From an uncultured Acidobacteriota bacterium (GTDB lineage: Bacteria > Acidobacteriota > UBA6911): a stretch of DNA of 64,000 bases. Positions 10,390 through 62,803 of this stretch are shown here, one piece after another; positions within the stretch are counted from its first letter, which is position 1, and every line of letters begins with the position of its first letter. The DNA lies in assembly GCA_963809485.1 (NCBI GenBank), contig CAWEJX010000012.1:78185-142184 (forward strand), in the 5' to 3' direction. A model generated the notes under the pieces. The model was not told where the DNA came from, ran no database searches, and was given only the letters and a program-made list of their open reading frames with translations. A program made the translations under genes and the position numbers.

Positions 10390-10414
10390 GTTGGTATCCT
10401 CCCGGAGCAATGCA

Positions 10415-12559: not shown

Positions 12560-12625
12560 ATTTGTCTCCCCGGTCCGATTGCAGATTTCCGATTGAATAA
12601 GGTCTATTCAATCCGCGACCCGCGG

Positions 12626-13679: not shown

Positions 13680-13700
13680 CGGAGATCACCTCTGCATGAA

Positions 13701-14579: not shown

Positions 14580-14590
14580 GTGTGCTCTCC

Positions 14591-15164: not shown

Positions 15165-15169
15165 AAACT

Positions 15170-18004: not shown

Positions 18005-18320
18005 TCGGCTAAAGCCGGTAGAATCCTTTGCGACTGAAAGTCGCTGGCGGCGAAAGCCACTTGAGGCCCGAAGGGCCGGCATTGAATTGGCCCGGCCGTC
18101 AGGCCGGGAAGAGGATCGAGGCTAACAAGAGCGCCAAAGGCGCGGCACCTTCATTCCCGTTTGTGCCGGCCCTTCGGGCCTCATTGCCCAACAAGTTCAA
18201 TCCCGAGCTGACGCTCCGGCCTATTTCTTGCCGGCCCTTCGGGCCTGAAAATCAAGCTGAAAGATTACCGCCTGAAAGGCGATGGGCTTGAACCGGGCGA
18301 TTGAGCTAAAGGCGCAGGTT
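18005..18320 (+). repeat. Cluster of about 9 short GC-rich hairpins with A-rich or UUC loops, including an 18-20-nt repeat present three times
   Basis: The hairpins include cggc-taaa-gccg, gcgac-tgaaa-gtcgc, ggc-gaaa-gcc, ggccc-gaa-gggcc, cccggcc-gtca-ggccggg, gcgcc-aaa-ggcgc, ggccc-ttc-gggcc (twice) and cgcc-tgaaa-ggcg. The sequence tgaggcccgaagggccggca (18062-18081) recurs as its reverse complement near 18164-18183 and about 18229-18246. Confidence 0.5.
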
Positions 18321-22170: not shown

Positions 22171-22192
22171 AGTGGAAGAAAGGAGAGAAATC

Positions 22193-24034
22193 ATGCGACG
22201 TTTTAGAATAGCATTAATCTGTTTATGTGCTCTGGGCATTGTGTTAGCGGTATACGTGGTGACCAAAGGAGGTATAGAGGATGATACCTTAACAAGCAAG
22301 AAAGTAACAGTGCTGAACCCGAGAGGTATAGCTCCTCCAATCGAAATGATACCCATGGCACCCAGGCTTGACACCCTGGAGGGCAAAACAATATACCTCG
22401 CAGGTATAAATTTCCAACCGTTGCATCAAGGCATGATAGAAATCCACAGAATACTCGCCGAAAAATATCCCAAAACCACCTTTATACTCAAGGTCAAAGA
22501 GGGCTCCTACTTGGTTAATGACCAGAAGCTATGGGATGAAATCAAAGAAAAGGGCGACGGAGCGATAGTCGGTATCGGGCAGCTAGACACCAATGCACCG
22601 GCGACTGTCATCTTCTCCTCAATACTGGAAAAAATGGGGATACCCACGGCACCTGTTGTCACCGCAGGGTTTCCGAATCTCACAAGAAGCTTCGCGTACA
22701 AGAAGGGGATGCCTGAACTGCGATTGACTTTTATTCCCCATCCTTTCTCAGCCAGACCAGTCGAAGTACAACGGGAATATATAAAGGGTAAAGATCCCAT
22801 AAGCGGCAAACCAATTATTGAACAAATCGTTGAGGCCCTCACCAAACCGCTAACCGATAAAGAACGAAAGACAGGTACCATAGAAAGACCCATACGAAGA
22901 ATCCTGGGGCCTGATACTCCCGAGAACCTGGCCAAGCTCTTTCTTGAAAACGGATGGACGGACGGTCTTCCGATAATTCTTCCTACGCAAGCAAGGGTAG
23001 CCGCGATGCTCAAGGGAACAAGCCACAAGCCTGATGAAGTAATCGGCATGATGCAGCCCACTCCTCCTAACGAGGCATGGGAAGGCTCTTTAAGGCAACT
23101 TGGCGGTAGTCAGGCGAAAGGAGGAGCTGAATTACCGGTAACGATGCAGCCTTCGCCTCCCTACGAGTCCTGGCAATATACTGTGGAGCATGTCGCTATC
23201 AATGCCGTGATGGCGGGAGCCAGTAAAGAGCATTTTCCTGTTATACTATCTATAGCCTCCACAGGAGTAACCTCATTATTCAGTTCCTGTTCCTCTTTCG
23301 CCAGGATGGTTGTCGCCAACGGGCCAATCCGCAAAGAGATAAAGATGAATTCCGGACTGGCCGCGTTGGGCCCCTTCAATCATGCCAATTCCGTCATCGG
23401 AAGGGCGTGGACGCTGATATCCAAGAATCTGGGAGGCTCGATACCGGGTGAAACATATCTGGGTGATCTGGGTAATGCCCTCAACTACAACAATTTATGT
23501 TTTGCGGAGAATGAAGAGGCACTGCCCGAAGGATGGAGTCCCCTGCATGTGCAGAAAGGCTTCAAACCTGAAGAAAGCGTTGTCAGTATCTTGAGCGGGT
23601 GGAGTTTGATTAATTATGGTGCTTTTAAGCCGTACCCGATTCACGAGGTCGCCAGGAAATTGTTTATAAGCTTTGAAACCAGCGGAGCCAGTATGGGTCG
23701 CCCTACTCTGTTATTAAGTCCCATAACGGCAACAGATCTAAAGAATGAAGGCTTCGAGAGTAAGGAGAAGTTGAGCCAGTGGCTCAAGGAAAATACCTAT
23801 ATGACCCTCTGGAATTACTGGGCGATGAGGCCTAAGGACTTAGCATCCGCTAAAGCAGGAATCGAGCCATTCGCCTCAATGCTAAAACAGTCCCCGGGGG
23901 CATACTCACCGCAAAAATCTCTCGCGCCCAACTCACAGGTTGAGATATTGGTAGTCGGTGGGGGGACCGAGGTATCCTGGCAGGCCGGAGACTTCGGGTA
24001 CATGGTATCCGCATCGGTGGATAAGTGGAGGTAG
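22193..24034 (+). CDS. Two-domain family paralogue with a hydrophobic N-terminal anchor or signal; the U-x-x-C pair is replaced by LDTN
   Basis: MRRFRIALICLCALGIVLAVYVV is followed later by APRLDTLEGKTIYL. ...GDGAIVGIGQ-LDTN-APATVIFSSILEKMGIPTAPVVTAGF aligns residue for residue with the USTC paralogue at 56602. The C-domain has GWTDGLPIILPT, INAVMAGASKEHFPVILS and AENEE. Confidence 0.75.
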   Translation: MRRFRIALICLCALGIVLAVYVVTKGGIEDDTLTSKKVTVLNPRGIAPPIEMIPMAPRLDTLEGKTIYLAGINFQPLHQGMIEIHRILAEKYPKTTFILKVKEGSYLVNDQKLWDEIKEKGDGAIVGIGQLDTNAPATVIFSSILEKMGIPTAPVVTAGFPNLTRSFAYKKGMPELRLTFIPHPFSARPVEVQREYIKGKDPISGKPIIEQIVEALTKPLTDKERKTGTIERPIRRILGPDTPENLAKLFLENGWTDGLPIILPTQARVAAMLKGTSHKPDEVIGMMQPTPPNEAWEGSLRQLGGSQAKGGAELPVTMQPSPPYESWQYTVEHVAINAVMAGASKEHFPVILSIASTGVTSLFSSCSSFARMVVANGPIRKEIKMNSGLAALGPFNHANSVIGRAWTLISKNLGGSIPGETYLGDLGNALNYNNLCFAENEEALPEGWSPLHVQKGFKPEESVVSILSGWSLINYGAFKPYPIHEVARKLFISFETSGASMGRPTLLLSPITATDLKNEGFESKEKLSQWLKENTYMTLWNYWAMRPKDLASAKAGIEPFASMLKQSPGAYSPQKSLAPNSQVEILVVGGGTEVSWQAGDFGYMVSASVDKWR

Positions 24035-25703: not shown

Positions 25704-25919
25704 GCCCTAAAAATGAGATAAATCGACCTCATAGAGGATTAGCCTGTCGAGAGCATCGAGGTCGGGCGATGGGCTCCCGAGAGCATGCCTGATTTTTGAA
25801 GATCTGAGATGTGTCGACATCAGAAAAGCTGGATCTTGGGAGGATGATAAAGATACTCCGGGAAGGTGGAAGACTGGGCACTGTATAAAAAATGTATCCA
25901 TCCATGGGAGGAACCGCAG

Positions 25920-26995
25920 ATGAAACATTTAAACAGTATGCAAAAACTATTGATATTCATTAGCTATATCCTAATGGTCTGCGGGAGCGCCGCTATCGCG
26001 GATGATCGTCCAGACTCCGGGGGTATTACATATCTTCAGGGCCCCAGGAATGCCGAGGATATCCAACCGCTTGGTGATTCTCAGTGGTTGGTTACCTCCG
26101 GCTTGAACGGCCAGGCTTCAAAAACGGATGATAACGGCCATATCTACTTGGTCAATCGCAAAGAGAAGACATTCGAAGAATTCTTTCCGGGGGTAACGCC
26201 ACAATTTAATCACGATAAGGTAATGTTCAATGCCTGCCCAGGCCCGATAAACCCTAATAAATTTTCCGCCCATGGACTGGCCGTGCGGAAACGATCGTCC
26301 GGGCTTTATCGCCTGTACGTCGTCAATCATGGAGAAAGAGAAGCCATAGAAGTATTTAATATTGACGCTAAAAGGCAAAAAGCCAGCGATTAGTTGGGCG
26401 GGTTGTGTATTATTACCCAAAGAGATCATGGCGAACAGTGTCGCTATTCTTTCAGATGGTGGATTTTTAGACGACCAAGTATTTCGATCCGACTGTGCCG
26501 AATTCCATCAAAGAGCTCGTCCGGGGCAAGATCACCGGTGGTGTTTATGAATGGCATCCCGGCGGAACCGTTAAAGCCCTACACGGTACGGAGCTATCCG
26601 GCGCAAACGGGATCGCGGTATCTCCGGATGGTGAATGGGTCTATGTGACGGCCTTTGGTACACGCGAGATAGCCCGTTTTAACCGTACAAAAAGTCCTAT
26701 TACAATGGAGAAAGTTAAGATCGACATCATGCCTGATAACATCCGTTGGGGTGATGATGGCATGCTTTATATCGCGGGTAATAATTATGTACCGCCTGAG
26801 CAATGCCCAAAACCACCCTGTCGGACTGGATGGTCCGTATTTAGTATCCACCCTGAAACCTTGGAATTGAAACGAGTAACCGGTGTTGATCAAACGGCAA
26901 CTTTGCAGAATGCCACCACGGCACTTGCAGTGGGTAATGAGATATGGGTGGGAACCTACTCGGGTGATAGGATTGGTTATTTACCGAAGCCTTAA
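25920..26995 (+). CDS. Exported SMP-30/gluconolactonase/arylesterase-like beta-propeller protein; two +1 frame breaks, near 26372 and 26470
   Basis: The signal peptide is MKHLNSMQKLLIFISYILMVCGSAAIA. Three consecutive +1-shifted ORFs (25866.., 26362.., 26495..) join into one protein with propeller-like repeats (GANGIAVSPDGEWVYVT, PDNIRWGDDGMLYIAG). Confidence 0.55.
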
Positions 26996-27609: not shown

Positions 27610-29433
27610 ATGGCAAAACTTAATGCGGTATGGTTGAGATCAGTAATAGGTGTGTTCTTTGTTTGTTCTATAACCATAGTGCATGCAAATACTTTTGCCG
27701 CTGAGCCTGAAGCGAAGGCAGAAGGTTTTTCATTTGAGGTGCTTAATCCGGAGGCCGAGTGGATTATGCCATCCAAAATCTCACTGATTTCTCCACGGCT
27801 TAAGGACCTGTCCCAGAAGAAAATCGGATTGCTCTACGCCGGCAAATCGGGTGGCGAGTTTTTTCTGGATGCATTAGAGGTGCTTCTGAAGAAGAAATAT
27901 CCTTCGGCCACGATCTCAAGATATACCCGATGGGTGGATAATGCAGAGGAAAGGATATTAAGGGAAGAAGATGCCTTTGTTTATGCGGTGGGAGATGCCG
28001 GCCAGGCAGCCTGGGACAGCATAACCTGGACAGTAAAACTGGAAAAACTCGGTAAACCCGGTGTTGCTGTTTTTGGTGACCGCGTCTTATATAATGCAAA
28101 AGTGGCCGCTTCCCATCTTGGCATGCCGTCGGTTCGTATGGTGCCCCTACCCAGTATGGAATTTTACCCGAACAGGGCAAGCGCAGCGACCATGATGCCC
28201 TGTGCCGAAATGGTTCTGGACGATATAATAAATGCGTTAACCCGCCCGATACAGCCTTCAGAGAAGAATGCCGGTTTGATACCGAAAAAGGCGACACCTG
28301 AGTTTGTAAGAATTACAGGCGACAGCCTGGAATCCGCCTATGATAAATTCTACCAGCTATTCATGGATAATGACTGGGGCGATGGACTCCCACTGGTCCC
28401 TCCCACGCGCTATAACGTCGAACAGATGTTAAAGGCAACCAGCCTTTCACCTGATACAAAACTGGGTACAATACAAGTACATGACGGGAGTTCCGACCTA
28501 GTGCATGTCACTGTGGGTAAAGTTGCTGTAAATGCTGTGATGGCCGGCGCTAAACCGGAATATTTCCCGGTTATTATCGCTGCCATGGAGGGGATATCCG
28601 ATAGGGGATTTTCCAGTCACGTTTTTTCTTCTGACGCCTCCTTTAACCTTTTAATAGCCGTGTCCGGCCCCATTGCGAAAAAAATCAATATGCACTCCGG
28701 AACAGGTTTCCTGGGGCACGGGTGGCGGGCCAATAATACCATCGGACGCGCTGTAAGACTGTGCATGAACAATATAGGCCATATAAGACCGGGAAAGCTT
28801 GATACGGCATTAACCGGCAGGGCGTCATCCCATACTTTTTATGTGCTGGCTGAAAATGATGTATTAAGTCCCTGGGCTCCATTTCACACTGTGCGAGGCT
28901 ACCGGGCGGAAGACAGTTATGTTACAGTGTCCGGCATAGGTCTGGGCGGCGATTTCACTATTTACGGCGGCGGAACAGGAGGCGCCTGGAAAATTGATGA
29001 TGTTCTGAAAAGCATTATTAATAGAATTGCTCCTAACCGCAGTATGTTTGCAGGAACTGGCGTCAGGCCTCTCAACTATATTTTCATACTGAGTCCCGAT
29101 ACGGCACAGGAACTGAAGAAACGGGGCTATACCAGGCAGAGCCTTCAGGACTACATTATAGACAAAACATCCGTACCCTATGAGCAGTTGAGCAAGGCTG
29201 AGATCGAGGGGCTCAAAAGGAGGCTTTCGGAAAAGTCCGATGCCTGGGGAGGAACCGGGAATATTCCTGAAGACCGCAAACCCGTGTTCCGGGAAAACCT
29301 TAAACCCGGAGGCAAAATACCTGCTGTCGTTTCACCTGACAATCTTAACATTTTTGTATCGGGTGATGTGTCAGGCTATAATCTTGGAGCGGTTTATCTG
29401 CTCGGGGGCCACTCGATTAAGCCTGTTCGATAA
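27610..29433 (+). CDS. Two-domain family paralogue with a signal peptide; the U-x-x-C pair is replaced by AGQA
   Basis: The signal peptide is MAKLNAVWLRSVIGVFFVCSITIVHANTFA. SPRLKDLSQKKIGLL is followed later by EEDAFVYAVGD-AGQA-AWDSITWTVKLEKLGKPGVAVFGD. The C-domain has DWGDGLPLVPPT, VNAVMAGAKPEYFPVIIAA and NNTIGRAVRLCMNNIG. Confidence 0.75.
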   Translation: MAKLNAVWLRSVIGVFFVCSITIVHANTFAAEPEAKAEGFSFEVLNPEAEWIMPSKISLISPRLKDLSQKKIGLLYAGKSGGEFFLDALEVLLKKKYPSATISRYTRWVDNAEERILREEDAFVYAVGDAGQAAWDSITWTVKLEKLGKPGVAVFGDRVLYNAKVAASHLGMPSVRMVPLPSMEFYPNRASAATMMPCAEMVLDDIINALTRPIQPSEKNAGLIPKKATPEFVRITGDSLESAYDKFYQLFMDNDWGDGLPLVPPTRYNVEQMLKATSLSPDTKLGTIQVHDGSSDLVHVTVGKVAVNAVMAGAKPEYFPVIIAAMEGISDRGFSSHVFSSDASFNLLIAVSGPIAKKINMHSGTGFLGHGWRANNTIGRAVRLCMNNIGHIRPGKLDTALTGRASSHTFYVLAENDVLSPWAPFHTVRGYRAEDSYVTVSGIGLGGDFTIYGGGTGGAWKIDDVLKSIINRIAPNRSMFAGTGVRPLNYIFILSPDTAQELKKRGYTRQSLQDYIIDKTSVPYEQLSKAEIEGLKRRLSEKSDAWGGTGNIPEDRKPVFRENLKPGGKIPAVVSPDNLNIFVSGDVSGYNLGAVYLLGGHSIKPVR

Positions 29434-29878: not shown

Positions 29879-32318
29879 ATGACGGCAGCAAATGAAAGTA
29901 AAAGGGAAGAGTCAAGGGACAACTGGCTCTGGCTCTGGAGACCCCCTGAAGGCGGCGATATCGGCCGCCGCGGCCTGCGGCCCAGAGAGGCTCCCGAGAA
30001 AGTAACGGGCAGAGCCGTTTATACCAATGACGTTTATCTTCCGGGAATGCTGTATGTGAAGGTTTACCGTTCTCCGTATGCCCACGCCAGGATCCGGAAG
30101 ATGGATACCAGCAAAGCCGAGGCTCTTCCCGGCGTCTGGGCCGTAATCCGATATGATGATCCGGATATCGATTTAAGCGATCCCTATAAACCCGTATTGG
30201 GTTTCATGTGGTTTTGGCATCGGAATTCCATTCTCCCGGATACCGCCGATTATCAGGGCGTCCGAGTAGGAGCGCTGGTAGTTGCCGAAAGCGAGGAAAT
30301 CTGCGATCAGGCTTTGAAATTGATCGGGGAAGGCATCGAGTGGGAGCAATTGCCTTTCATCCTGGACCCGGAAAAGGCGATCCAACCCGATGCGCCTCTT
30401 TTGCATCCGGAAATAAATCCCAAAAACAATATCTGGAAAGATGCAGTGATTCTCAACCAGGGTGACGTGGAGAAGGGATTTGCCTCATCCGACCATGTCA
30501 TCGAGTTCAGCGAGATCAAGAAGGAGGATGATGTCTGGGCCGGCGTGGAGCCCGGATGTATGGTTGTCCAATGGGTTGGCGACAATCTGGAATTCTGGTA
30601 TCACGGGCAAAGAATCGGGGTAGATGTAAATTTCATATCAGCTCCCGTGTTCAAAAACGATAAAAAGCAGCCGAAAAAAGTGAAAGCGCACACGCCTTTT
30701 AACGGCGCCACCTTCGGCGGAAATGCCATGGGTCTTGCCTGCTCATCTGGCCAGGTATGCGGCGATAGCAGCCAGGAAGACCATGCGTCCGGTCAAGGTT
30801 GTGGATGATTACGCCATGAGCTGGGAAGGCAACAGTTTTGAGACCGGAATTGCCCATTACAAGGTGGGCTTTAATAATGATGGAACCATTGTCGCCATCA
30901 AGATCGAAATCAACCAGAAAAACGGCCTTCCGATAACATCCAAGTTTATCGATACCTTGAAGACGCCGAATGTTTATGTGCATGCGATACATTCTTACTG
31001 GAGCAGACCCCATGAGTCCTGCTGGAAGGATGGCGCGGCCAATTGCACCCTTGTCAACCTGATAATCAATAAGGTAGCTGCCTGTTTGAACATGGACCCG
31101 ATAAAGGTGCAACTGCTCAACGATGGCGCCAGATGGGCATGATATGGCCTGGCTGGACGAACATGTCAAGAAGCCTTACGGAATGCCCCTCAGGGACAGC
31201 CTGAAGGAGGTTGTTGAAGCCGGCAAGAAAGCTTTCGATTGGGACCGGAAGTGGCATCCGCCGGGCACGCGCAGGCTCCCCAATGGCCGGATGCATGGTG
31301 TCGGTTTTTACGCGGTAGCCTGTTGGCATACCGGCGCCAGAAAGGGCGGCGTCCCAGGCATATCTATGGCGAGAGATGGAACGGCTACCATCTTTTACCG
31401 CCGCCCCGATTGCGGCCAGTCTGCCGCTACCACCTATTGCCAGATTGCGGCTGATGAGATCGGGCTGCGCTATGACGACGTTAAAATTGAGTTCATAGAC
31501 TACTTCTACTTTGATGCTGTTCCTCCCGCAGGTTCCATGGGTTCCAGCCTCAATACTTTCGGCCTTGTGGTCAATGCCCGAAAAATGAAGAGAGCTTCTC
31601 CTGGAATATGTTGTGAACCCTCCCATTGGGGCAATACGCGCCTATGGCAATGCAGTTCCACCGGTACTCATCCCTTTCCAGGGCAAAAAGGTTGAGGAAC
31701 TGGATATCAGGGACGGCGTCATCTTTGAGAAAGCCCATCCGGAAAACAAGCTGCCGGTAAGAAGAGTCACCTCATTGCTGCCGCGCGGATTGGAGGCAGC
31801 GGCAGAAGGAGGATCCTTTCTTCGTCGGCGACAAAGCTCCTGAGCTTCCCGAAGTTAAGGAGAAATATACATTGGCCCGGCAATGTGTTTTCGTCGAAGT
31901 CGAGGTTGACACCGAAACCGGACAGGTTGAGGTTATCAAGCTGGTCCATCCTTATGATGTAGGCCAGTCGCTGAATCCCGATGTGAATGACCAGCAACTC
32001 TACGGCGGTGCCTATCCGGGCGTAGGTGTCTCCGCCACTGAAGCCATCTATTATGATCCGCATACCGGAGTCAGGCTGAATGATAATCTGCTTGGTTATC
32101 CTGTTCTGACCATACTGGATGTCGGCGAGATTGAAGCTCCCATTGTAGAAACGCATCTGGGCTGGAGCGCCTATGGACTTTGCGGCTGCAGCGAAGCCGG
32201 TAAGGCGGCCACAGCCGCAGCGATACTGGTCCCCGCCGTTTATAACGCCATCGGAAAGTGGATTGAGGAAACCCCGGTTACGCCGGAAAGAGTTCTCAGA
32301 GCGCTGGGAAAAGCATAG
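29879..32318 (+). CDS. Xanthine dehydrogenase / CoxL-family molybdopterin-binding large subunit, copy L1; four +1 frame breaks near 30739, 31132, 31597 and 31817
   Basis: Five successive ORFs, each in the +1 frame relative to the previous one, are collinear with the paralogue at 32992..35407. Shared blocks include RGLRPREAPEKVTGRAVYTNDVYLPGMLY, VKVVDDYAMSWEG, WHPPGTRRLPNGRMHGVG, QCVFVEVEVDTETGQVEV and CSEAGKAATAAAI. Confidence 0.8.
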
Positions 32319-41205: not shown

Positions 41206-42993
41206 ATGGCTATGAAGAAGGGAATAAAGAGGTCACTATTGGGAGCATGCCTGATAGCAAGCATGTTTGGGATCAGATCAGGTTTTGCTCAGGTGACATT
41301 GGAGGTCATAAGTCCGCGGGCGGAAATTCCGCCTCCGCCGTCAATTCTTCACCCCGCACCTCGGCTTGCGGATCTGGCGGGCAAAAGAATTGGATTGATT
41401 GCCAATAACAAACCCGGTGCCGAGCTCTTTTTAACGAAGATCGAAGAATTGCTCAAGCAGAAGGTCCCTGATGCAAACATCGTGCGCCTTAAGATGATGA
41501 AGGTTTCGGCTGAACAAGCCAAGAAGCTGGCATCTCAAATCGACACCTTCATCCACAGCACAGGGGACTGAGGGGGATGTACGTGGCTGGTTAGCCGCGA
41601 TACTATCGAACTGGAAAAGCTTGGCAAACCCGGCGTAGGCGTTGTCACTTCTACTTTTCTCAGTGATGCTCTTTCGGCGGCTCAAGACTCCGCTATGCCT
41701 ACGGTGCGTCTTGTAGCGGTGCCTGCCAAAAATTACTATACGGCGCGGACTCAGGAACCGTTGATGAAGGACGTTGCGGCCGCGATTATTGATAAAGTCC
41801 TCGATGCATTAAAGCGTCCTTTGACCCCGGAAGAAACAGGTGCGGCTGAAGCCTCGAAGAAGGCGAAGAAGGACGAGGAAATACTAAAGTTCACCGGAGC
41901 GACCTATAACGAAGCAGCTGAGGCGCTTTACAAAGGATTTCTCGAGCGCCACTGGGCCGATGGATTGCCCATAATGCCTCCCACAAAAGAGGCTGTCGAT
42001 TGGATGCTTACAGGAACGAACCGCTCTCCGGAGGAAGTAATCGGCATTGTCGCCACAAAAGGCGGGAAGGCAACAATAAGAAAGATTGCCGCGAACGCTG
42101 TAATGGCGGGGGCAAGGCCGGAGTATTTGCCGGTGATCATTGCGGCTATGGAGGCCATCACAGGAGAAGGATTAAGCGCCCTGCATCTGCAGGCCTCCGC
42201 GGGATGCGTAAGCCCGCTCATTTTGGTCAACGGGCCGATCGCTCAAGAATTGGAGATAAATTCCGGGGCCGCCTATATGGGCCATGGATTCCGGGCGAAT
42301 AACTCCATTGGACGTGCCGTCAGGCTGAGCATGATCAATTGCGGGCACATGTGGCCGCAACAAAACGATATGTGCTTGCTTGGACGGCAGGATGCGTTTG
42401 GGAATACGACTTTTGCGGAAAATGAGCAAGAGAGCCCATGGAAGCCGTACCACGTTGACTTGGGATTCAAACCGGAAGACAGCACCGTTACGGTAGTGAA
42501 TTATATGCACCACAAACGCGGTCCCGGCGGGCCGGTCGTGCCTGCAACTCCGTATGAGAGCCTGTTTGACCTGGCGAAAACAGTAGAGATCGTAAACACG
42601 CCTTTGGGATCGGCATCCAATGAGGTCATAATAGCCATCGATCCGACTTTCGCCCACCAACTGTCCACGGTGGGGTTTAGCAAAGAGGATATTAAATGGT
42701 GGATCTTTTTGAATGCGCGCACTCCGTACTCGGAACTAAGAAAAGAAGAGAAAGAAAACCTTCGAAAGTCCATCGAAAGCGGGAAAACGCCCGCCTATCT
42801 TTGGACCTGGGGCGAACAAGGGCAAGAGAAAAAAATTGAAAACATAGCGGATGTACCCTGCCTCCAGAAACCGGACCGGATTCACATTGCCGTGGTGGGT
42901 GGTTCGCCGGGATATTCGTATGTCTGGGAGTCACCGACGGGGCAGGCCACTAAACTGATACGCGGCGCCGCGCTCACTAAAGCAGGGCGTTAG
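41206..42993 (+). CDS. Two-domain selenoprotein with a signal peptide; Sec codon at 41569..41571 (motif UGGC)
   Basis: The signal peptide is MAMKKGIKRSLLGACLIASMFGIRSGFAQ. APRLADLAGKRIGLI is followed later by QIDTFIHSTGD-TGA-GGCTWLVSRDTIELEKLGKPGVGVVTSTF. That reading continues in frame (41044 and 41695 are both 1 mod 3) into HWADGLPIMPPT, ANAVMAGARPEYLPVIIAA, NNSIGRAVRL and AENEQESPW. Confidence 0.8.
41583..41598 (+). promoter_or_regulatory. SECIS-like stem-loop 11 nt downstream of the UGA at 41569
   Basis: The mRNA reads UGA-GGGGGAUGUAC-[GUGGCU GGUU AGCCGC], a 6-bp stem including one G-U pair, with a GGUU loop. Confidence 0.55.
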
Positions 42994-43101
42994 TCCGCCC
43001 GGGATTTGTGCTCGGTTCGCAGCACGCCACGCGTGCTCTTTCAAGGAGCATCGTCCGGACGCAAAGAGCATGCAGCGCTGGCCAAAAGCGGCATGCGAAT
43101 C

Positions 43102-43148
43102 GGCCACGGCTTCCAGCCGTGGCCTTGGCCTGTCCCCGCAAAGCGGGG
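43102..43148. terminator. Two GC-rich hairpins between convergent genes; candidate bidirectional terminators or REP-like elements
   Basis: ggccacggc-ttcca-gccgtggcc (43102-43124) has a 9-bp stem. ccccgc-aaa-gcgggg is at 43134-43148. Neither has a clear U-tract, so confidence is low. Confidence 0.3.
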
Positions 43149-43330
43149 CGAACGGGTGTTATTCCTGTTTTGCGGAGCATACAGAGAAAAGAAACTTTAC
43201 AGAGCAGCTTTCGCATGCTCCGCGTGACACTTCCCTTTTGCTGGTGGCCGCTTGCTGGAAGGACTCAGCCTGTGAGGGCGCATGGCCCGAAGCCCGTGGC
43301 TTTATGGGCACTGAGGTCACTGAAAGAACA

Positions 43331-44665
43331 TCAGCGTGTGCCTTTTTTATCTTCTTTGCCAAATGGGATATCCTGCTTGCCGGCCCCAGTCAGGACCTCT
43401 TCCCAATTGGCGGGCAGCTTCACCTCTCTGCTCACTGCTTTGGAACCGCCCCACACGGGAACGATCATGTTTTTCTCTCCCGGAGGGCCTCCTGCAACCA
43501 ATATGAGCAGTTGATCGATGGAAGGCGTAGGGATCATCGCCTTCGACGCGTCGGTTGCCCCGGGAATGGAGTCAGACGCTCCAGGCGCTTCGCCGGACGG
43601 ACGGTTGAACCTTTTTTTGAACTCGGCTGCGGGCGTCACGGCATGTTCGGCGATGTACTTTTTAAGTCCGTCCTTCGTCCATCCGTCACCCGCCAGTATG
43701 TCGACCGTGTCGTAATTGAGAATCAACAGCAACACGCCCATGCGGGCGCTGTGCAATCCTACCAGTCGGTCCGCCAAGAGGCTCAGGAACTGCTCGGAGG
43801 TCAGACCCAATCCCACAATCGCCTGATAGGATTCCGCCGTGACGACCGTAACGAGATTCGAGTCTTTTGAGTGGCCCAAATCGACGCGCAAAGGCTTCCA
43901 GGGATTCCCCTCTTCGATTTCAGCAACACAATTCGCGAACTCGCCCGGTTGACCTAAAGTAGACATGTCGTTGACACCCGGCCAACTTCCGCCGATGTTG
44001 TTGATGATCATGTGCAGGGCCCGGCCGATTGTCGCATTTGACCGCCAGCCGCGTCCCAGGGCGTTTGACCCTGAATTGATGTCCAGTTGCCTGGCGATCG
44101 GGCCGCTGACGATGATCAAGGGGGAGTCATTGCTTGTAGTGGTCGCCACCTGCGACAGGTTGAACTCCGGGTCGGACACGGCCTCGACAGCCGCAATGAG
44201 CACCGGCATGTACTCCGGCCGGCACCCCGCCATCACTGCATTGACGGCAATTTTCTCCACTGTGGCCTGCCCCCCCTTGGGCGGCACGGAGGCGATCACC
44301 TTTTCGGCGGGCATATCAACGCCGCGCAGCATCTCCCTTACGAGTTCGGGCGTTGGAGGCACGATCGGCAAACCGTCGCCCCACCCGCGCCTGTAAAACA
44401 GATCGTTGACCTCCGCGAAAGCATCCTTGACGATCGTAATTTTCTCGGTTCTCCCCTCGACAAATTCTCCCGCCAAAGAGGGCCGCGTCTTGCCGGTAGC
44501 CGCCATGACAGTTTTGAGAAGTTTGTCGATATAGGCTCCATCTTCGCGTATGCCGGCCGGGTTATAGACTTCGATCACCTGATTGGCCGCAGCGAAAACG
44601 GAGGATGCCAGAACAGCATTGAGGATGAGGGCACGCACGATGGTACGCTGAGAAGTTGTCGGCAT
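43331..44665 (-). CDS. C-domain-only member of the family, with a signal peptide
   Basis: ATG 44665 follows AGGAG. The signal peptide is MPTTSQRTIVRALILNAVLASSVFAAA. The C-domain has GWGDGLPIVPPT, VNAVMAGCRPEYMPVLIAAVEA, SNATIGRALHMIINNIGG and EIEEGNPWKPLRVDLG. There is no UGSC module. Confidence 0.75.
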   Translation of the reverse strand: MPTTSQRTIVRALILNAVLASSVFAAANQVIEVYNPAGIREDGAYIDKLLKTVMAATGKTRPSLAGEFVEGRTEKITIVKDAFAEVNDLFYRRGWGDGLPIVPPTPELVREMLRGVDMPAEKVIASVPPKGGQATVEKIAVNAVMAGCRPEYMPVLIAAVEAVSDPEFNLSQVATTTSNDSPLIIVSGPIARQLDINSGSNALGRGWRSNATIGRALHMIINNIGGSWPGVNDMSTLGQPGEFANCVAEIEEGNPWKPLRVDLGHSKDSNLVTVVTAESYQAIVGLGLTSEQFLSLLADRLVGLHSARMGVLLLILNYDTVDILAGDGWTKDGLKKYIAEHAVTPAAEFKKRFNRPSGEAPGASDSIPGATDASKAMIPTPSIDQLLILVAGGPPGEKNMIVPVWGGSKAVSREVKLPANWEEVLTGAGKQDIPFGKEDKKGTR

Positions 44666-44919
44666 CCCATAGCTCCTGTTTCGAAATGTGTGGGCGCGCA
44701 TCGTTACCCCGGAGGTCCATCGGCCGTCGCGAGGTCCGTGAGAATGGATGTGATACAAGGGCGACACAGGCATTGCGGCCGCATTTCGCAGCCGATTGTC
44801 CCGCAGGTTCCCGGGCTTTTGACTCGTTGGAACGAGTATCGCGCCCTAAACCATTCTAACGGCCGGCATGGGTCCATGCCCTTTGACATTTGGCTACGAC
44901 AAAATCATGTGCGGACGGC

Positions 44920-45172
44920 TCTCCAAAGACTTTCTCAAAACCACTGGCATGAGATCCTCGCCGGCAGTTTTGAGAAAGTCTCTGGAGAGCGGTTTTCACC
45001 CCATCAACAGCAACGGCTGAGTAAATGGCACTTATATATGATTTTTCAGCGTGCGTCAGCGTTTATCGGCGTTAGTCAGCGTTAAAATTTATGCACGGGC
45101 TTCCAGAATCGGTATCAAAACGACTGTCGCGAGATCCTCGCCCCCAGTTTTGACACAGTTTCTCCAGGGCCG
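44920..45172. repeat. Composite intergenic repeat: a 23-bp-stem hairpin, a TCAGCG-iteron segment related to the 230-bp repeat family, and a second degenerate hairpin unit
   Basis: ctctccaaagactttctcaaaac (44920-44942) pairs with gttttgagaaagtctctggagag (44968-44990), matching 22 of 23. The segment gagatcctcgcc...agttttga.. repeats at 44951-44990 and 45131-45170. tcagcgtgcgtcagcgtttatcggcgttagtcagcgtt lies at about 45046-45083. Confidence 0.5.
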
Positions 45173-45276
45173 TCCGGTAAGACTGAATCGCGTCCGCTTA
45201 TAGATTCAGGTTTTTTCGCGCTTCGCATCGGGTTGATCCCAATGGCCATAGGTAAAGATCTGTTGGATGCACTGCG

Positions 45277-46953
45277 CTAGTAAATCTCGTAGTTGGGAAC
45301 AAGAGCTTTATATTTTGCTACAAGCTTGTCCCAATTGCGGGGAAACTCGATCTTTTTGGTGACGAAGCTGTTTTCGAAACCGCCCGAGCTCTTAAGTGCC
45401 GCCATCCAGACGCCAGACCCGCCCGAGACGACCACTATGAAATCCTCTTCTTTGAGCGGCGATCGAAATTCGCCCCGAGGCGCGTTTTTCAAAATGAACT
45501 CCCTGAGCCTCTTCTTCGACCACCCTTCGCTTGAAAGAATGCGAGCATGATCGGGGATGACCACCAGGCAGGACAGCGCGTTAGGACCAAAGCTCGCGAG
45601 TCTTTCGGCAATTCCCTGAGCCGTCGTCTGACTGGGGATGGTTTGGGTAAAGCTATTCGGAAAAAGTACAGTCAGCGCGCTGTCCTCTTTTTTCAGGCCG
45701 AAGTTGACATGCAGGGGTTCCCATGGGCTTTCTTCTTCATTCTCCCCGAGCACAAGGGTGTATTTTTGGGGATTGCCCATGACCCCCATGTCCTCGATAC
45801 CCTTTCTCACCCCAGCGATGTTCTTGACCATTAGGCCGACGGCGCGCCCAATGGCGGCGTTGGCCATGTTCCCGGGACTGAAAACGCCCGAGCCGCAATT
45901 TATATTGAGATCATTGCGCACCCCGCCGTTGATGATGAAGAAAGGCGCCCACGAACCCGTGCTTGTTTGAAAGACATCGAATCTGGTTTTCGGATCCGCC
46001 AGAGCTTGCACCGCCGCTATCAGCACCGGCATGTAAGTAGGAAGGGCGCCGGCCATGACCGCGTTTACTGCAATTTTCTCAACAGTAGCCTTGCCTAACT
46101 TCGGTACCATCTTGGCCACCACCTGATCGGGCGGCAGGTCCGTCCCGGTCATCATTTCCGCCACCGCCTTTTCGGTTGGCGGCACAACCGGCAGGCCATC
46201 GGTCCAGCCCTTACTGTAGAAGAAATGGGTTACCTCCTGTTGGGTTCCCTTGAAAATGATCCGGGGAGCCTTCGCCGCTTTCGGCTTCGGCGATTTCTCT
46301 TCGGGCGTCAGCGGTTTAGTCAGTGCGGCAATAATTTCCGGCAGAACGGCAGTGATGCCGCCCTCGATATCTGCGGCAACAGTGGATTCACAAGCGATAT
46401 TTTCAGCCAGGATTCTGACTCCCGGCATTCCTTTGACAGATGCTGCTGCCTGGGCATCCTTAACGAAACCATAATTCGCCAGTACCACGACCGGCGTGCC
46501 AAAGTCCTCGACGGATACTCCGTTGTACGCGAGGTACTTTGTGCAGGACCCTCAGTCACCGACCATGGCAATGACAGCGTCCATACTCTTTACCCAGGCG
46601 GCAAATTCATTGCCGTCTTTCTGTTCTGCCACGATGATGGTCGTCAAACGGGGTTCAAAGAAGCTGAACTCAGCAGTAGTATATTTTTCTTTCAGTTGCT
46701 TCGCAATCGCCTCTGCCATAGGCTTGGCGGCGCGCTTCCTGTTGGTAAACAGCCCGATTTTCTTGCCGGCCAAAGTATCCAGCCGGGGCGCGAGTCCCCT
46801 CGGCGGCACTGCATCCGCTTCCGCCCACGGGCTAAGGACCTCGTATTGATTGTCCGGTGCGGGGCTGGCGAACGGCGTTGGTGAAGGGGCCGTTACTACC
46901 AACGTGCAGAGGACAGTGGTGATCAAAACCGACGCAATTTTATGCATAAGCAC
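45277..46953 (-). CDS. Two-domain selenoprotein with a signal peptide; Sec codon at 46554..46552 (motif UGSC)
   Basis: The N-terminus reads MLMHKIASVLITTVLCTLVVTA. APRLDTLAGKKIGLF is followed later by SMDAVIAMVGD-TGA-GSCTKYLAYNGVSVEDFGTPVVVLANYGFVKDAQ. That reading is in frame (46953-46488=465) with GWTDGLPVVPPT, VNAVMAGALPTYMPVLIAA, ANAAIGRAVGLMVKNIAG and ENEEESPWEPLHV. Confidence 0.8.
46500..46541 (-). promoter_or_regulatory. Extended SECIS-like hairpin starting 10 nt downstream of the UGA at 46554..46552
   Basis: The mRNA reads CAAAGU-A-CCUCG-CGUACA-ACGGA-GUA-UCCGU-CGAGG-ACUUUG. That gives 16 bp in three helical segments. The apical GGAGUAUCC is the same 9-mer as in the 14808-14826 hairpin but is read in a different codon phase. 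Confidence 0.45.
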
Positions 46954-52768: not shown

Positions 52769-54364
52769 TTAAGCCCAGGGCTTCTCGGCAACAACGCGTT
52801 CGCCCGCAATGCGTCCGAAAGCGACACACTCACCAAAGTTGCCCGTCCCCTGGTAGCCGAAGCTGAATATGGAGCCAAGCTCCCCGGCGGAGTACAGTCT
52901 TGGGATGGGCTTACGATTCGTATCCAACACTTGAGCGCGACCGTTGTGTCGCGGCCCCCCCAAAGTGTTAACGAAGGCGGGCACCAGCTCCATGGCATAA
53001 TAGGGTGGAGTTTGTATCGGGATCAGTCGTTCCTTCGGCCTGCCGAATTCCGAGTCGCTACCTGCCGCACAAGACCGATTCCATGTAGCCAGAGTCTTTT
53101 CCAGAATGTCCGGATTTTTCCCCATTTTTGAGGCCAGCTCGCGTATGGTATCGCCCTTGAGAATCCAGCCCTTCTGCAATTCCACGCTGCTGTCGGCGCT
53201 CCATTTATATTTTTCAATCACTCCGTGCCAGCACCAAAATTCATCAGCCCGGTAAAGCGGGCCACTATTTCTCCCGACCTCATCAAAAACCGCGTGTACT
53301 GGCAAGGGCGGGGGAAGATGAACGTAGGTACCGTGGTAGGCTACCTTGCCGTGTTTGCCAGGTTGGTTTTCGTTGACGAACCTTGTTGCGTCACTGGCAG
53401 CAAAAATGTATCCCCCGGCAGACAGGGTGAATCCGGCGCCAAAGGCCCATTCACAGCCTGGAGCTTTAAAACTAAGAACTGTACCGCACATATTAGCCAT
53501 GTGCCAAAGGTCGGCGCCCACGGCCTGAGCCATTCTTATACCGTCACCGGTGTTATAGGGGCTGCCAAATGGGTATGCGTACGGCAGCAGAAGGTAGTCA
53601 CGGATCATCTCCTGATTGTTTTCGTACCCGCCGGTACACAGGATCACACCCTTTTTCGCTTTAACATATACCTTTTTACCTTGTCTTTCCGCGATTACAC
53701 CATGGATTTCCCTGCTCTTATAATCCTGGACCAATTCAATTCCAGGCGTTTCATACATGATCTTTACTTGCCTCTTGTCGACGGCTTCTTTGAGCATCTT
53801 CCAGAGCCTGGAGTATCCCCACCCCTCTGCGGAGCCGCACATATAGCCGCTTCCGGATCCAGGCAACTCAGGAAATTCTGCCTGGGCCGTTCCGGAAGTG
53901 CGCTGACTGATTTTTCCGCTGCATGTTTTTTTCAGCCATTCGAAGCTCTTTGTGGTGTATTCATGATAGGCCTGAAATACTTCATCGGGGACTGGATATC
54001 GGCCATTGAGCGCCTTTTGATAAGTAAGGGCTTCATCGAGGTTGGGCGGACACCAAACACCCTGCATGCTTACCCTGCTGTTGCCTCCCGCGTGAGCTTC
54101 GGATGCCTTCTCGAGGATCAGCACGTCGGCGCCCAGATCACGGGCAGCTATGGCTGAACTAAGGCCGGCTCCCCCTATTCCCAGCACAACGACCTCCGTC
54201 TCATGGTCCCATTTCGAAACCTGACTTTGCTGGGCCGCCGCTGCTTCTCTCGAACCGGCGCCGGCCAGAGCGGCCGAGCCTGCGCTGACTGCTGCTGTTT
54301 GTATAAAATTCCTCCTTGTGAGACGATTTCTTTTCCTTTCAGCTTTCATAAGCTTTTCTCCCAT
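52769..54364 (-). CDS. Tat-exported FAD-dependent oxidoreductase (fumarate reductase / KstD-like flavoprotein family)
   Basis: LTRRNFIQTAAVSAGSAALAGAG is the Tat signal. EVVVLGIGGAGLSSAIAARDLGADVLILEK is the dinucleotide fold. The C-terminus reads LYSAGELG...AFGRIAG. Confidence 0.75.
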   Translation of the reverse strand: MGEKLMKAERKRNRLTRRNFIQTAAVSAGSAALAGAGSREAAAAQQSQVSKWDHETEVVVLGIGGAGLSSAIAARDLGADVLILEKASEAHAGGNSRVSMQGVWCPPNLDEALTYQKALNGRYPVPDEVFQAYHEYTTKSFEWLKKTCSGKISQRTSGTAQAEFPELPGSGSGYMCGSAEGWGYSRLWKMLKEAVDKRQVKIMYETPGIELVQDYKSREIHGVIAERQGKKVYVKAKKGVILCTGGYENNQEMIRDYLLLPYAYPFGSPYNTGDGIRMAQAVGADLWHMANMCGTVLSFKAPGCEWAFGAGFTLSAGGYIFAASDATRFVNENQPGKHGKVAYHGTYVHLPPPLPVHAVFDEVGRNSGPLYRADEFWCWHGVIEKYKWSADSSVELQKGWILKGDTIRELASKMGKNPDILEKTLATWNRSCAAGSDSEFGRPKERLIPIQTPPYYAMELVPAFVNTLGGPRHNGRAQVLDTNRKPIPRLYSAGELGSIFSFGYQGTGNFGECVAFGRIAGERVVAEKPWA

Positions 54365-56601: not shown

Positions 56602-58320
56602 ATGCGTTTCGGAAAATTTCTGATATTGTGCTTCCTCGAATTGAGTCTATTTCCACTGCATGCTCAGGAACCCAAAGTTACTGTAATGAACCCGCTGGGA
56701 ACTCCCCCTCCGATCCGGCTGGTTCCCATGGCGCCGCGACTCGATACGCTCGACGGCAAGACCGTGTATTTTGTCGATTCGCGCTATGTGGGAGGAGATA
56801 TCTTCCTGAAGGAGATGATGTCCTGGTTTTCCGTGAACATGCCCAAAGTTAAGCTTGAATTCAGGCAGAAGGCCGGCGCCTACGCGGAAAGCGATCCCCA
56901 GTTGTGGGACGAGATCCGGCAAAAAGGGGATGCTGTAATTATGGCGATCGGGCATTGAAGTACCTGCACGCCGGCGGTCGTCGGCCATTGTCTCGAGCTC
57001 GAGAAACTCGGCAAGCCCACTGCGCCTGTTGTTACGAACAGCTTTGTGGCGTTGGCAAGAGGCAATGCCCATAAGCGCGGCATGCCGGGAGAACGTTTCA
57101 CCTTTGTTCCGCACCCTGTCTTCGGGAAGACGCCGCAGGAAATGCGGCGCGATATTGAAGGGAAGGATCCGGTCACGGGAAGACCGGTCATGCAGGAAAT
57201 CGTGGAAGCCCTGACCAAGCCGCTGACTGCGGAAGAAAGGAAGGATGGATTCCTGCAGAGGCCGCCAAATCCCCGGTTCCTTCCCCCCGATACTGCGGAC
57301 AACCTGCAGCGATATTTTCACGAACATGGAATGACGGACTATCTCCCGGTCATTCTTCCTACCGGGGAAAAGGTAGCCGCCATGCTCAAGGGAACCAGTC
57401 ATGACCGCAACGAGGTGGTTGGAAAAATGGCGGGAGGCGCGTTCGACCCCTGGGAATACACGGTGGAACAGGTGGCCGTGAATGCCGTCATGGCCGGTGC
57501 GCGGCCGGAATACTTGCCGGTTATCCTCGCACTGGCATCTAGCGGGCAGGCATCGCTGTACAGTTCCACAAACTCATTCGCATATTCCGTGGTGGTCAAC
57601 GGGACGATTCGCGACGAGATAAAAATGCACTACAGGGTCGGAGCGATGGGGCCGTTCAGCCAGGCGAACGCAACGATTGGAAGAGCATGGACTTTGATGT
57701 CGAGAAACCTGGCAAACGGAGGCATCGTCGGAGAGACATACCTTGGGTCCACCGGGAACAATCTGAATTACAACAATCTCGTTGTCGCCGAGAATGAAGC
57801 GGACAGTCCGTGGAATTCACTGAGTGTGCAATTAGGATACAAACCGGGGGAGAGCGTCATCAGCATCTTTACCGGTTTGGGAATGCAGCCGGGACAATTT
57901 GCGAAGGGGGGCGGCATTTCGGTAAAGCCTCGGTATGACGAACAGTTTCTGAGCGTAATAAGCAATTTCACTACGCTGTTTGGAGCTTTGGTAGTCTGTG
58001 ATCCCCTCATTGCCAAGGCTCTCAAGGAACAGGGCTACGATACAAAAGAAAAGCTGATTGACTGGCTTTATAAAAATGCCGTCCATACGGTGCGGGAATA
58101 TAAGGACGCCAGTTTTGTGCTGACATTTGATCTTCCTCGAGCTCAGAAGGGCGTTGAGCCCTTCGCCTCGTGGTTCAAGCTGCCGGATGACGCAAAAATT
58201 CCAATCTTTATAAAGCCGTCGGATCTCTCGATTGTGGTGGCAGGCGGCCAGACGCAGGCCAGGTTCCAAGCGGGGAATCTACGCTATACGGCGAGTTTTT
58301 CTGTTGACAAATGGAGATAA
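56602..58320 (+). CDS. Two-domain selenoprotein with a signal peptide; Sec codon at 56956..56958 (motif USTC)
   Basis: The signal peptide is MRFGKFLILCFLELSLFPLHAQ. APRLDTLDGKTVYFV is followed later by KGDAVIMAIGH-TGA-STCTPAVVGHCLELEKLGKPTAPVVTNSF. That reading is in frame (56602 and 57046 are both 1 mod 3) with HGMTDYLPVILPT, VNAVMAGARPEYLPVILA, ANATIGRAWTLMSRNL and AENEADSPW. Confidence 0.8.
56970..56985 (+). promoter_or_regulatory. SECIS-like stem-loop 11 nt downstream of the UGA at 56956
   Basis: The mRNA reads UGA-AGUACCUGCAC-[GCCGGC GGUC GUCGGC], a 6-bp stem with one G-U pair. As I recall, GGUC is also the apical-loop sequence of the E. coli fdhF SECIS. Confidence 0.6.
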
Positions 58321-61267: not shown

Positions 61268-61492
61268 AGAATTGCTGCTGCGGATGGAAGCCATCTTTGG
61301 GCTGAGCGCTATGATCGAGAGATGAGAGACGTATGCACGATCGAGGAGATCCAGGAGCCTTTCCATAAGCAGCATCGGACTGATGGCCTTCCGGTCATCC
61401 CACCCAAAAAGGAAGCCGTGGCGGAGATGTTGAAGGGAACGGGCTTCACGGCTAAGACAGACGTCAGAAACACAGCCCGGCTCAAAAAGTGA
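61268..61492 (+). pseudogene. Relic of a C-domain gene of the two-domain family (~75 codons)
   Basis: My own translation gives ...DVCTIEEIQEPFHKQHRTDGLPVIPPKKEAVAEMLKGTGFTAKTDVRNTARLKK-stop. This matches the W-x-DGLP-(V/I)-x-PPT-x-E-x-V-x-x-ML-x-GT signature, and nothing follows it. Confidence 0.5.
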
Positions 61493-61536: not shown

Positions 61537-62803
61537 TCAATATCTCCCGTATTCTTTTGTGAATTCAATCATGGCCTTCAAGTTCTCCGGCTTTACCTCA
61601 TCCGTGGAACTCCTTGGCCCCAGAATGTATCCGCCGCCCTTGCCCACCGTGTCAATGAGGTTCTTGCAGTAGTCTTTGACTTCCTGAACCGACCCCATCT
61701 GCAGAAGTGAAGACGGCACATTCCCTTCTATGCACACATGATCTTTAAGAATCTCTTTCGCCTTGACTATGTCGGTGCGGTCGAACCGGGCCAGTATCTT
61801 GCCCTTGGGAAACTCGAGCAGATACTCCAAACGCGACGTGAATGTCCCCTCAAAAAAAATGCAGGGCGTTGCTCCACGATCGACGAGAGTCATGACAAGC
61901 TTCTTGAATGTCGGCCAGTAAAAAGTCTGGAACTGCTTCATCGACATGAAGTCGTCGGACCCCCTCGTATTGGTCATGAAAATCCTGATGTTGCCGAATT
62001 CATTAGGCTTCGGTAGCGGTCTTGCCAGCGTTTTCTCCAGCAGGAATTCACACATCGCGATGAGTTTGTGCGGCTTTCGATACATGTCCAGCATCGTGCC
62101 CTTCATGCCGCGAATACTGTTGGAGATCACATCAAATGGCGGCATTGCCGCCCCCTGAAACAACTGGGGGATGCCGTAGTCAAGCAACATCTGGTTGAAC
62201 TCGTCGATTTTGTGCTGCCACCTCCTGAATTCCCGCCCTGCCTTCTGGAGGTTTTCGATCATGGATTCGAACTTGGGTTCGGTAAAGATCATCGCCAGCG
62301 TTTGCGCGGCCATAGGCTCGATCCAACTCATGCTGTTCGAGCTCCGGAAGCATCGACAGCCCTTCCAGGCTTTCATACGTCCTCGGCAGATGATGCCGTA
62401 TCATGAAATCGGCCGGCTTGTCTAAAAAGCAGTCGTGTTCGTCATCCCGCAAGCTTTCAATTTCAATGGCCTGGTGCCCATGGTTGGGAGCAACGCCGTA
62501 GCCGGGCCATTTCCGAAACCTTGGATTCAGGTATTCCATTGCGGTTCCGGGAGAGAAAGGCTGGGTGAATGACATGTCCGGCTGATAGTCGCCAAGTGTT
62601 TTTCGGTATGCCGCCAGCCAGGCGTCAGGATCATAATACGCAGCCGAGCATGGTATGCCGGCATAGCGGGCGACGAAGTAGCCAAGCGAACAGATTACCG
62701 GGACCCTGTCCGTAGGTCTGAGACGGATGGCGTTCGTGACCCGCAGTTCTCTTTCACGGCGCAATTCCTCGGAAGTTTTTCCATGTTCAAGTGTTGTTGT
62801 CAT
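61537..62803 (-). CDS. URO-D family protein, paralogue of 38079..39419; +1 frame break at about 62338
   Basis: ORFs 62180..62803 and 61537..62376 join as ...GLSMLPEL|NSMSWIEPMAAQ.... The downstream part (IRGMKGTMLDMYRKPHKL, FFEGTFTSRLEYLLEFPKGKILARF) is collinear with the intact paralogue. Confidence 0.65.

Follow-up and report, generated by a model that had tools for sequence, protein, structure and literature searches.

Stem-loops behind in-frame UGA codons of five paralogous UGSC-family genes as probable bacterial SECIS elements

When five members of one gene family each carry an in-frame UGA codon, are these codons stops, or are they read as selenocysteine (Sec), and does the RNA immediately downstream hold the signal for such a reading? 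The question is raised by a 64,000-nucleotide stretch of contig CAWEJX010000012.1 (positions 78,185 to 142,184 of the forward strand; assembly GCA_963809485.1) from an uncultured Acidobacteriota bacterium. This whole stretch is hereafter called the window, and all coordinates below are counted from its first letter. It contains five paralogous genes of the UGSC family with an in-frame UGA, referred to as S1 to S5. According to the original prediction, made by reading the sequence without database searches, each of the five UGAs is followed at a fixed distance of 10–11 nucleotides (nt) by a stem-loop resembling a bacterial selenocysteine insertion sequence (SECIS). Our analysis makes it very probable that the five stem-loops are bacterial SECIS elements embedded in the coding sequences of five paralogous genes for UGSC-family selenoproteins. 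From the Sargasso Sea and Global Ocean Sampling (GOS) studies of 2005–2008 onwards, UGSC has figured among the selenoprotein families for which SECIS elements are predicted (PMC2398784; PMC13188914), and S1–S5 are further examples of this already described family.

Five UGA codons in UGSC-family genes

In all five genes the in-frame TGA occupies position 1 of the U-x-x-C motif of the UGSC-family domain (Pfam PF24696), which reads UGGC in S1, USTC in S2 and UGSC in S3, S4 and S5. The window proteins score 53–98 bits against PF24696 (cut-off 25), with E-values down to 1e-27, and 44–86 bits against the NCBIfam model NF041046, 'UGSC family (seleno)protein'. The latter scores are under the 125-bit equivalog cut-off, and the window proteins also differ from the known family in being mostly fusions of ~560–600 amino acids, several of them with signal-peptide-like starts. 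The UGSC-family domain makes up the N-terminal ~170 amino acids of the paralogues, to which most copies add a C-terminal domain of ~400 amino acids.

The S1 gene (41206–42993, plus strand) encodes a signal-peptide-like N-terminus, the UGSC domain (PF24696, E = 1.2e-27) and the ~400-residue C-terminal domain; its UGA (41569–41571, motif STGD-U-GGC-T) has 191 and 473 stop-free codons on its two sides. The same organization is found in the S5 gene (45277–46947, minus strand; E = 9.6e-28), with the UGA at 46554–46552 in the motif MVGD-U-GSC-T. The S2 gene (56602–58320, plus strand; UGA at 56956–56958, AIGH-U-STC-T) joins a UGSC domain to a C-terminal domain. In the S3 gene (6852–8574, minus strand; UGA at 8261–8259, GVGG-U-GSC-S), a 1-nt frameshift at about 8291–8300 puts the N-terminal part in a different frame from the one that holds the Sec codon. 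The S4 gene (14591–15164, minus strand; UGA at 14840–14838, GICD-U-GSC-T) encodes a stand-alone UGSC protein of ~190 amino acids once one G at 14714–14718 is deleted, and its start codon is uncertain. Among the 41 TGAs of the window with long open flanks, no Sec candidates beyond the five sites were found; a compact SECIS-type hairpin follows only the Sec sites, the sole exception being an out-of-frame, terminator-like one at 39361. A reassigned genetic code was also considered and ruled out, TGA being an ordinary stop in 6 of 29 well-supported window genes.

Hairpins downstream of the UGA codons

Structures were predicted with RNAfold and with a search restricted to single hairpins, and both exactly reproduced the folds that had been drawn by hand at the five sites. 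The S1 hairpin (41583–41598, plus strand) has the form GUGGCU-GGUU-AGCCGC behind an 11-nt spacer (41572–41582). With an added C-G pair its stem grows to 7 bp, (C)GUGGCU-GGUU-AGCCGC(G), which spans 41582–41599 with a 10-nt spacer at -9.8 kcal/mol. An 11-nt spacer also precedes the hairpins of S2 (56970–56985, plus strand; GCCGGC-GGUC-GUCGGC; -9.0 kcal/mol), S3 (8247–8230, minus strand; GCCCGCG-GUUG-CGCGGGC; -14.8 kcal/mol) and S4 (14826–14808, minus strand; AUCGUGGA-GUA-UCCACGAU; -9.5 kcal/mol). The S3 hairpin can be extended to a 42-nt stem (8217–8258). The stems of S1–S4 are perfect and 6–8 bp long, with the loops GGUU, GGUC, GUUG and GUA. The S5 hairpin (46541–46500, minus strand; CAAAGU-A-CCUCG-CGUACA-ACGGA-GUA-UCCGU-CGAGG-ACUUUG; -16.5 kcal/mol) starts after 10 nt and is a three-part structure of 6 + 5 + 5 = 16 bp with the apex ACGGA-GUA-UCCGU. 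The predicted distance of 10–11 nt is thus found at every site, but its constancy is partly inherited, because the 11-nt spacer corresponds to the conserved G-x-C-T codons.

Agreement with the bacterial SECIS consensus

The bSECISearch criteria were re-implemented from the published consensus for bacterial SECIS (bSECIS) elements (Zhang and Gladyshev 2005; summary in PMC13188914 Fig. 2). In this model, a loop of 3–9 nt with G in its two leading positions, and in most cases G or U next, tops an upper stem of 4–16 bp; the loop follows the UGA at a distance of 16–37 nt, and the energy is no higher than -7.5 kcal/mol (PMC13188914 Fig. 2). All five sites fall within every published constraint, and we see no material difference between S1–S5 and the consensus. 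From S1 to S5, loop lengths are 4, 4, 4, 3 and 3 nt, upper stems measure 6–7, 6, 7, 8 and 5 bp (16 bp in total for S5) and the distances from UGA to loop are 17, 17, 18, 19 and 33 nt. The apical loops (GGUU, GGUC, GUUG, GUA and GUA) have the G where the model places it, and the energies of the single hairpins range from -9.0 to -16.5 kcal/mol. The SECIS-like character claimed at the outset is upheld by this agreement, and none of the tests run to refute it went against it.

How often such structures arise by chance depends on what is counted. When 1500 TGA triplets were sampled from the window (53% GC), any hairpin starting 9–12 nt after the TGA gave p = 0.23, 0.28, 0.05, 0.25 and 0.025 for S1–S5, respectively. 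The minimum free energy (MFE) of the whole segment, compared with dinucleotide shuffles, gave z = -2.46, +0.13, -3.26, -1.48 and -2.72. Raw folding energy alone is unconvincing for S1, S2 and S4. Because generic energy and MFE z discriminate poorly in GC-rich DNA, a score for the bSECIS architecture was adopted, which asks for an upper stem that is perfect and no shorter than 4 bp and a loop of 3–9 nt with G in its two leading positions, located 16–37 nt after the UGA. Against all 2035 other TGAs of the window, this score gave p = 0.011, 0.019, 0.001, 0.012 and 0.17 for S1–S5. The apical stem of S5 taken alone is weak (p = 0.17), and the energy of its whole hairpin gives p = 0.025. Random and shuffled controls, proposed beforehand as a way to refute the idea, seldom produced the compact hairpin with a G-first loop (p = 0.001–0.019 for S1–S4).

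Paralogues and homologues with and without selenocysteine

The paralogues without Sec had been put forward as a natural negative control, and they behaved as one. Three intact copies have SGGS (8668–10410, minus strand), LDTN (22172–24034, plus strand) or AGQA (27610–29433, plus strand) in place of UxxC, and at the homologous position none of them has a comparable hairpin. The best perfect-stem energy with a G-containing loop is -3.3 kcal/mol for SGGS and 0 kcal/mol for both LDTN and AGQA, versus -9.0 to -14.8 kcal/mol in S1–S4; the MFE z-scores of the homologous segments are -0.72, -1.04 and -0.27, respectively.

The comparison was extended to homologues elsewhere, namely 80 loci from a genome scan and 80 from a metagenome scan, hosted by Acidobacteriota, Desulfatiglans and other Thermodesulfobacteriota, Dehalococcoidia, Betaproteobacteria and further groups. 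With a UGSC-domain profile, the codon at the U position was identified at 156 sites, where it is TGA in 122 cases, a cysteine (Cys) codon (TGC/TGT) in 26 and another codon in 8; removal of duplicates left 153 sites. The conservation on which the claim had been made to depend was found: 80% of TGA homologues (n = 119) have a compact hairpin of at most -5 kcal/mol behind the codon, versus 15% of Cys homologues (n = 26) and 12% of the others (n = 8). Sec and Cys homologues differ in this compact hairpin (Mann-Whitney p = 2e-7), whereas the overall MFE of the 60 nt is alike in both. For the first 81 of the Sec homologues, the -5 kcal/mol mark was attained in 74% of cases, compared to 18% of in-gene control positions in the same loci (p = 2.5e-18). 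Position and loop also recur: among 96 Sec hairpins, 46 start at exactly 11 nt, 84 have the loop starting at 17–19 nt and 82 carry a GU within the loop.

Individual elements can be followed into their relatives. The GGUC loop of S2 is kept in four homologous loci (L042, L053, L054 and L071), and the GCCCGC...GCGGGC stem of S3 in two (L055 and L031). In the S1 orthologue L081 (96% amino-acid identity), a U.G pair of the stem is replaced by U-A and the loop GGUU by GGUC, the latter synonymously. L081 is the sole close relative of S1 in the metagenome scan, so the covariation specific to S1 comes down to two substitutions; in S1-like genes at a greater distance the stems differ, but a GUU or AGUU loop is found at an unchanged offset. 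The closest homologues of S5 (L001–L007, 54–63% identity) retain both lower stems unchanged, while the apex varies.

Covariation is most extensive for the S4-type hairpin. In an alignment of 47 sequences, 95% of cells are paired, versus 25–44% when the partners are slid, and the core of the helix was predicted independently by RNAalifold. In three pairs both partners have changed, one of these pairs going from GC to CG in nine sequences, and the covariation score was reached by none of 500 shuffles. The covariation called for in the original prediction is therefore present for the S4-type hairpin and in the substitution between S1 and L081, but the evidence for it is weak in the S5 type. Separately, a few Cys homologues (L123, L051 and L060) keep a SECIS-like hairpin, which in L123 is GUCGUGG-CUGAUG-CGCGAC at the 11-nt offset. 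These could be fossil SECIS elements left by recent Sec-to-Cys conversions.

Comparison with known elements

The C-terminal domain of SelB reads the G-U of the SECIS loop and a bulged U, according to work on E. coli and Moorella. The fdhF element used for comparison, UGA-CACGGCCCAUC-GGUUGCA-GGUC-UGCACC, is 100% identical to fdhF in 5419 of 5426 E. coli genomes, and the fdhF geometry given in the original prediction, with an 11-nt spacer and a GGUC loop, is right. Like S1–S4, the E. coli fdhF SECIS combines an in-frame UGA, an 11-nt spacer, a short stem and a loop containing G-U. The S2 loop is identical to that of fdhF. Counting the U of UGA as position 1, the loop G-U is at nt 23–24 in fdhF, 22–23 in S1–S3 and 23–24 in S4, that is, within 1 nt of G23-U24 in all four, and at nt 37–38 in S5. 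Unlike the 4-nt loop of fdhF, those of S4 and S5 are 3-nt GUA loops. S5 differs further in that its loop lies 14 nt further downstream at the top of a three-segment, 16-bp hairpin, to the base of which the 10-nt spacer leads. By this analogy, the window elements would work like the fdhF SECIS without being copies of it.

The family context is also familiar. In the GOS data, 255 UGSC members have Sec and 21 have Cys, and a 'UGSC/Unknown_1' fusion with an uncharacterised domain was already mentioned there (PMC2398784). The UxxC motif and the excess of Sec over Cys are common to that study and the present survey (255/21 versus 122/26). What sets the window apart from the known family is the presence of at least 10 paralogue loci within 64 kb.

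Weighing the alternatives

Several observations weigh against a SECIS interpretation. Rfam, scanned with the entire window and with two smaller regions at the gathering threshold and at E up to 10, returned no SECIS or other relevant family. The perfect stems of S1–S4 are without the bulged U of E. coli fdhF. Generic hairpins at an offset of 9–12 nt are common in the window, and the folding energies of the S2 (z = +0.13) and S4 (z = -1.48) segments are unremarkable. The five sites are paralogues, with position and spacer partly inherited, and do not amount to five independent events. In the S5-type alignment (8 sequences), the lower stems are invariant and the covariation score was matched by 50 of 500 shuffles. 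Neither selA, selB, selC or selD nor any tRNA (tRNA scan) was found in the 64-kb window. Finally, three-frame translation shows the S3 gene to be frameshifted ~10–13 codons upstream of its TGA, and in the S4 gene a surplus G lengthens the G-run at 14714–14718, 40 codons downstream of its TGA.

The frameshifts mean that S3 and S4 are not intact reading frames in the present assembly, a correction to the original prediction, and they give some room to the alternative that these two copies are decaying pseudogenes with hairpins that are relics no longer directing Sec insertion. In line with decay, the C-terminal-domain gene adjacent to S4 (12611–13649) is frameshifted too. However, unrelated genes of the window are broken in like manner, among them a xanthine dehydrogenase (XDH)-like gene (29879–31695), a URO-D gene (61537–62803) and an SGL-like gene (25866–26995); apparent 1-nt indels also occur near ~13070, and at least one of the window indels sits in a G5 homopolymer. 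The closest relatives come from metagenome-assembled genomes (MAGs), and the hairpins and UxxC motifs of S3 and S4 are both intact. Because several unrelated genes are equally fragmented, we favour assembly indels for S3 and S4: the pattern suggests an indel-prone (long-read or MAG) assembly over specific pseudogenisation, and decay of these two copies appears unlikely.

A second alternative is that the hairpins have no RNA function and are a by-product of protein-level conservation, with palindromic codons following UxxC (e.g., S-W-S-I-H-D). Two overlaps speak for it: the S4-type hairpin, present in 46 homologues, coincides with the conserved peptide SWS[IV]H[DG], and the lower stems of S5 coincide with the conserved residues K-[FY]-L and E-D-F-G without covarying. 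However, the peptides encoded by the five window hairpins are unrelated (WLVSR, PAVVG, PAVARA, SWSIHD and KYLAYNGVSVEDF), and yet all five fold. In the TSWL[MIV]RD subfamily, where peptides are near-identical, the Sec members form GUCGUGG-CUUGU-CCGCGAC, whereas most Cys members do not. In the S4-type helix, the GC to CG exchange involves a change of the Trp codon to Cys or Gly (UGG to UGC/GGC), which is matched by a change in the opposite third position of the Val/Ile codon (GUC/AUC to GUG). Moreover, the 9-mer GGAGUAUCC is, as had been noticed from the outset, common to S4 and S5 in different codon phases, encoding W-S-I-H in the former (uGG-AGU-AUC-Cac) and G-V-S in the latter (GGA-GUA-UCC). 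Conservation of the protein is thus a very improbable source of the hairpins.

It is just as improbable that the UGAs are true stops dividing each locus into two genes, the hairpins being terminators, attenuators or translational-coupling structures. Mechanical calling of open reading frames does break every locus at the TGA, a stand-alone gene for the C-terminal domain exists (43331–44773, minus strand; a paralogue without the UGSC part) and the two domains are encoded separately at the S4 locus. By contrast, the frame is open through the TGA and homology runs on without a break from one side to the other, the TGA falls midway through the UGSC domain at a residue that is Cys in 26 homologues, and no U-tract follows the hairpins on their 3' side. 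The family is, besides, catalogued as a selenoprotein family (NF041046; PMC2398784; PMC13188914). Chance, namely that GC-rich coding DNA folds often and the hairpins were chosen by eye, draws on the commonness of generic hairpins at 9–12 nt (p = 0.23–0.28 for S1, S2 and S4) and on an S2 segment that folds no better than shuffles, but can be dismissed given architecture-specific p ≤ 0.02 at four sites, the fit of all five to a consensus published beforehand, and control codons and 119 Sec homologues that agree with SECIS function, equal rates in controls not being found.

Proposed mechanism and implications

If the hairpins are SECIS elements, as we consider very probable, their action can be outlined by analogy with E. 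coli fdhF. When the ribosome reaches the UGA, the downstream hairpin would still be folded where the mRNA enters. SelB, loaded with Sec-tRNA(Sec) and GTP, would bind the apical G-U loop and the upper stem through its C-terminal winged-helix domain, and the ~11-nt spacer would place the tethered tRNA at the A site. The UGA would then be read as selenocysteine, producing the U-x-x-C redox motif, and translation would go on. SelB binding and actual Sec insertion in the source organism are probable by the same analogy. The Sec machinery of the host is assumed here, because none of selA, selB, selC and selD lies within the window.

The contrast between S5 and the other elements allows a more tentative idea. 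Conceivably, though we regard it as rather doubtful, one SelB serves two SECIS geometries in a single family, a compact fdhF-like one in S1–S4 (G-U at nt 22–24) and the three-segment one of S5 (nt 37–38). As part of this reading, the apex of S5 would have converged on the 9-mer GGAGUAUCC of S4 in another codon phase. The 9-mer occurs five times in the window versus 0.31 expected from dinucleotide shuffles, and the closest S5 homologues (54–63% identity) do not share it at their apex. If true, the two geometries and the convergence would point to an organism-specific recognition optimum of SelB, with the corollary that the peptide after UGSC (e.g., S-W-S-[IV]-H-D) would be imposed by the RNA and not by protein function. 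The other three copies of GGAGTATCC lie outside the SECIS apices, at 8107–8115 (minus strand), 21598–21606 (plus) and 53810–53818 (plus). One of the three is inside the S3 gene, ~150 nt downstream of the S3 UGA. An effect of codon usage on the number of copies is possible.

For annotation, recognition of the SECIS elements matters in that gene callers split these loci at the UGA, and selenoproteins of ~560–600 amino acids are restored once the elements are taken into account. It also marks the organism of origin as one that uses selenocysteine. With five Sec paralogues next to three that lack Sec, the locus constitutes a clean natural experiment for SECIS models, which can be enlarged by the 119 Sec and 26 Cys members from across the family. 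The known mechanism of bacterial Sec insertion is left unchanged.

Paralogue cluster, domains and neighbouring genes

With one copy as the tblastn query, at least 10 paralogous UGSC loci were found within the window. The UGSC/'Unknown_1' paralogues occupy 6852–10410, 12611–15164, 22172–24034, 27610–29433, 41206–46947, 56602–58320 and 61337–61441. Besides the five members with Sec, three lack both U and C, one is the stand-alone C-terminal domain and the others are fragments. The paralogues are interspersed with catabolic genes, namely those for a glycyl-radical enzyme with its activase, three family-III CoA-transferases, DHDPS-like proteins, molybdenum enzymes of the xanthine-dehydrogenase family and an acyl-CoA dehydrogenase. 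By eye, hydrophobic signal-peptide-like starts are recognizable at 41206–41290, 56602–56670, 46860–46947 (minus strand), 22172–22300 and 27610–27720, for example MAMKKGIKRSLLGACLIASMFGIRSGFAQ, with no twin-arginine motif visible; the 8668–10410 paralogue, S3 and S4 have no such segment. Judging from these N-termini, S1, S2, S5 and the other paralogues of this kind may be exported (seleno)proteins.

The C-terminal ~400-residue domain (8671–9813, minus strand, and its equivalents in the paralogues) matched nothing in Pfam and, by sequence, nothing in the PDB. Its AlphaFold model is confident (predicted local distance difference test 83.5, predicted template-modelling score 0.88), and a search with this model returned no convincing PDB fold match, the best being class-I fumarate hydratase (E = 7e-3, probability 0.44, template-modelling (TM) score 0.23). 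The domain may represent an undescribed fold. The UGSC domain (N-terminal ~190 amino acids of the 8668–10410 protein, taken from the full-length model) shows a weak likeness to flavodoxin-like three-layer folds, matching azoreductase, the flavodoxin domain of flavodiiron proteins and lumazine synthase (E about 2e-3, target TM 0.4–0.5). This differs from the thioredoxin-like fold proposed for UGSC in the GOS paper (PMC2398784).

At the S4 locus (12611–16090, minus strand), each of the two domains has a gene of its own within an apparent operon, which comprises, in this order, a thioredoxin-reductase-like flavoprotein (15170–16090), the stand-alone Sec UGSC protein, a DUF6282 protein (13701–14579) and the frameshifted C-terminal-domain gene. 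This gene order hints that the UxxC domain could be a redox partner of the thioredoxin-reductase-like protein. Elsewhere in the window, a divergent pair of near-threshold matches to the Rfam family Acido-Lenti-1 (gathering score 37) lies just upstream of the glycyl-radical-enzyme gene (18450–20765), at 18064–18109 (minus strand; 33.0 bits, E = 0.001) and 18201–18246 (plus strand; 30.6 bits, E = 0.005). These matches fit the Acidobacteriota affinity of the closest homologues.

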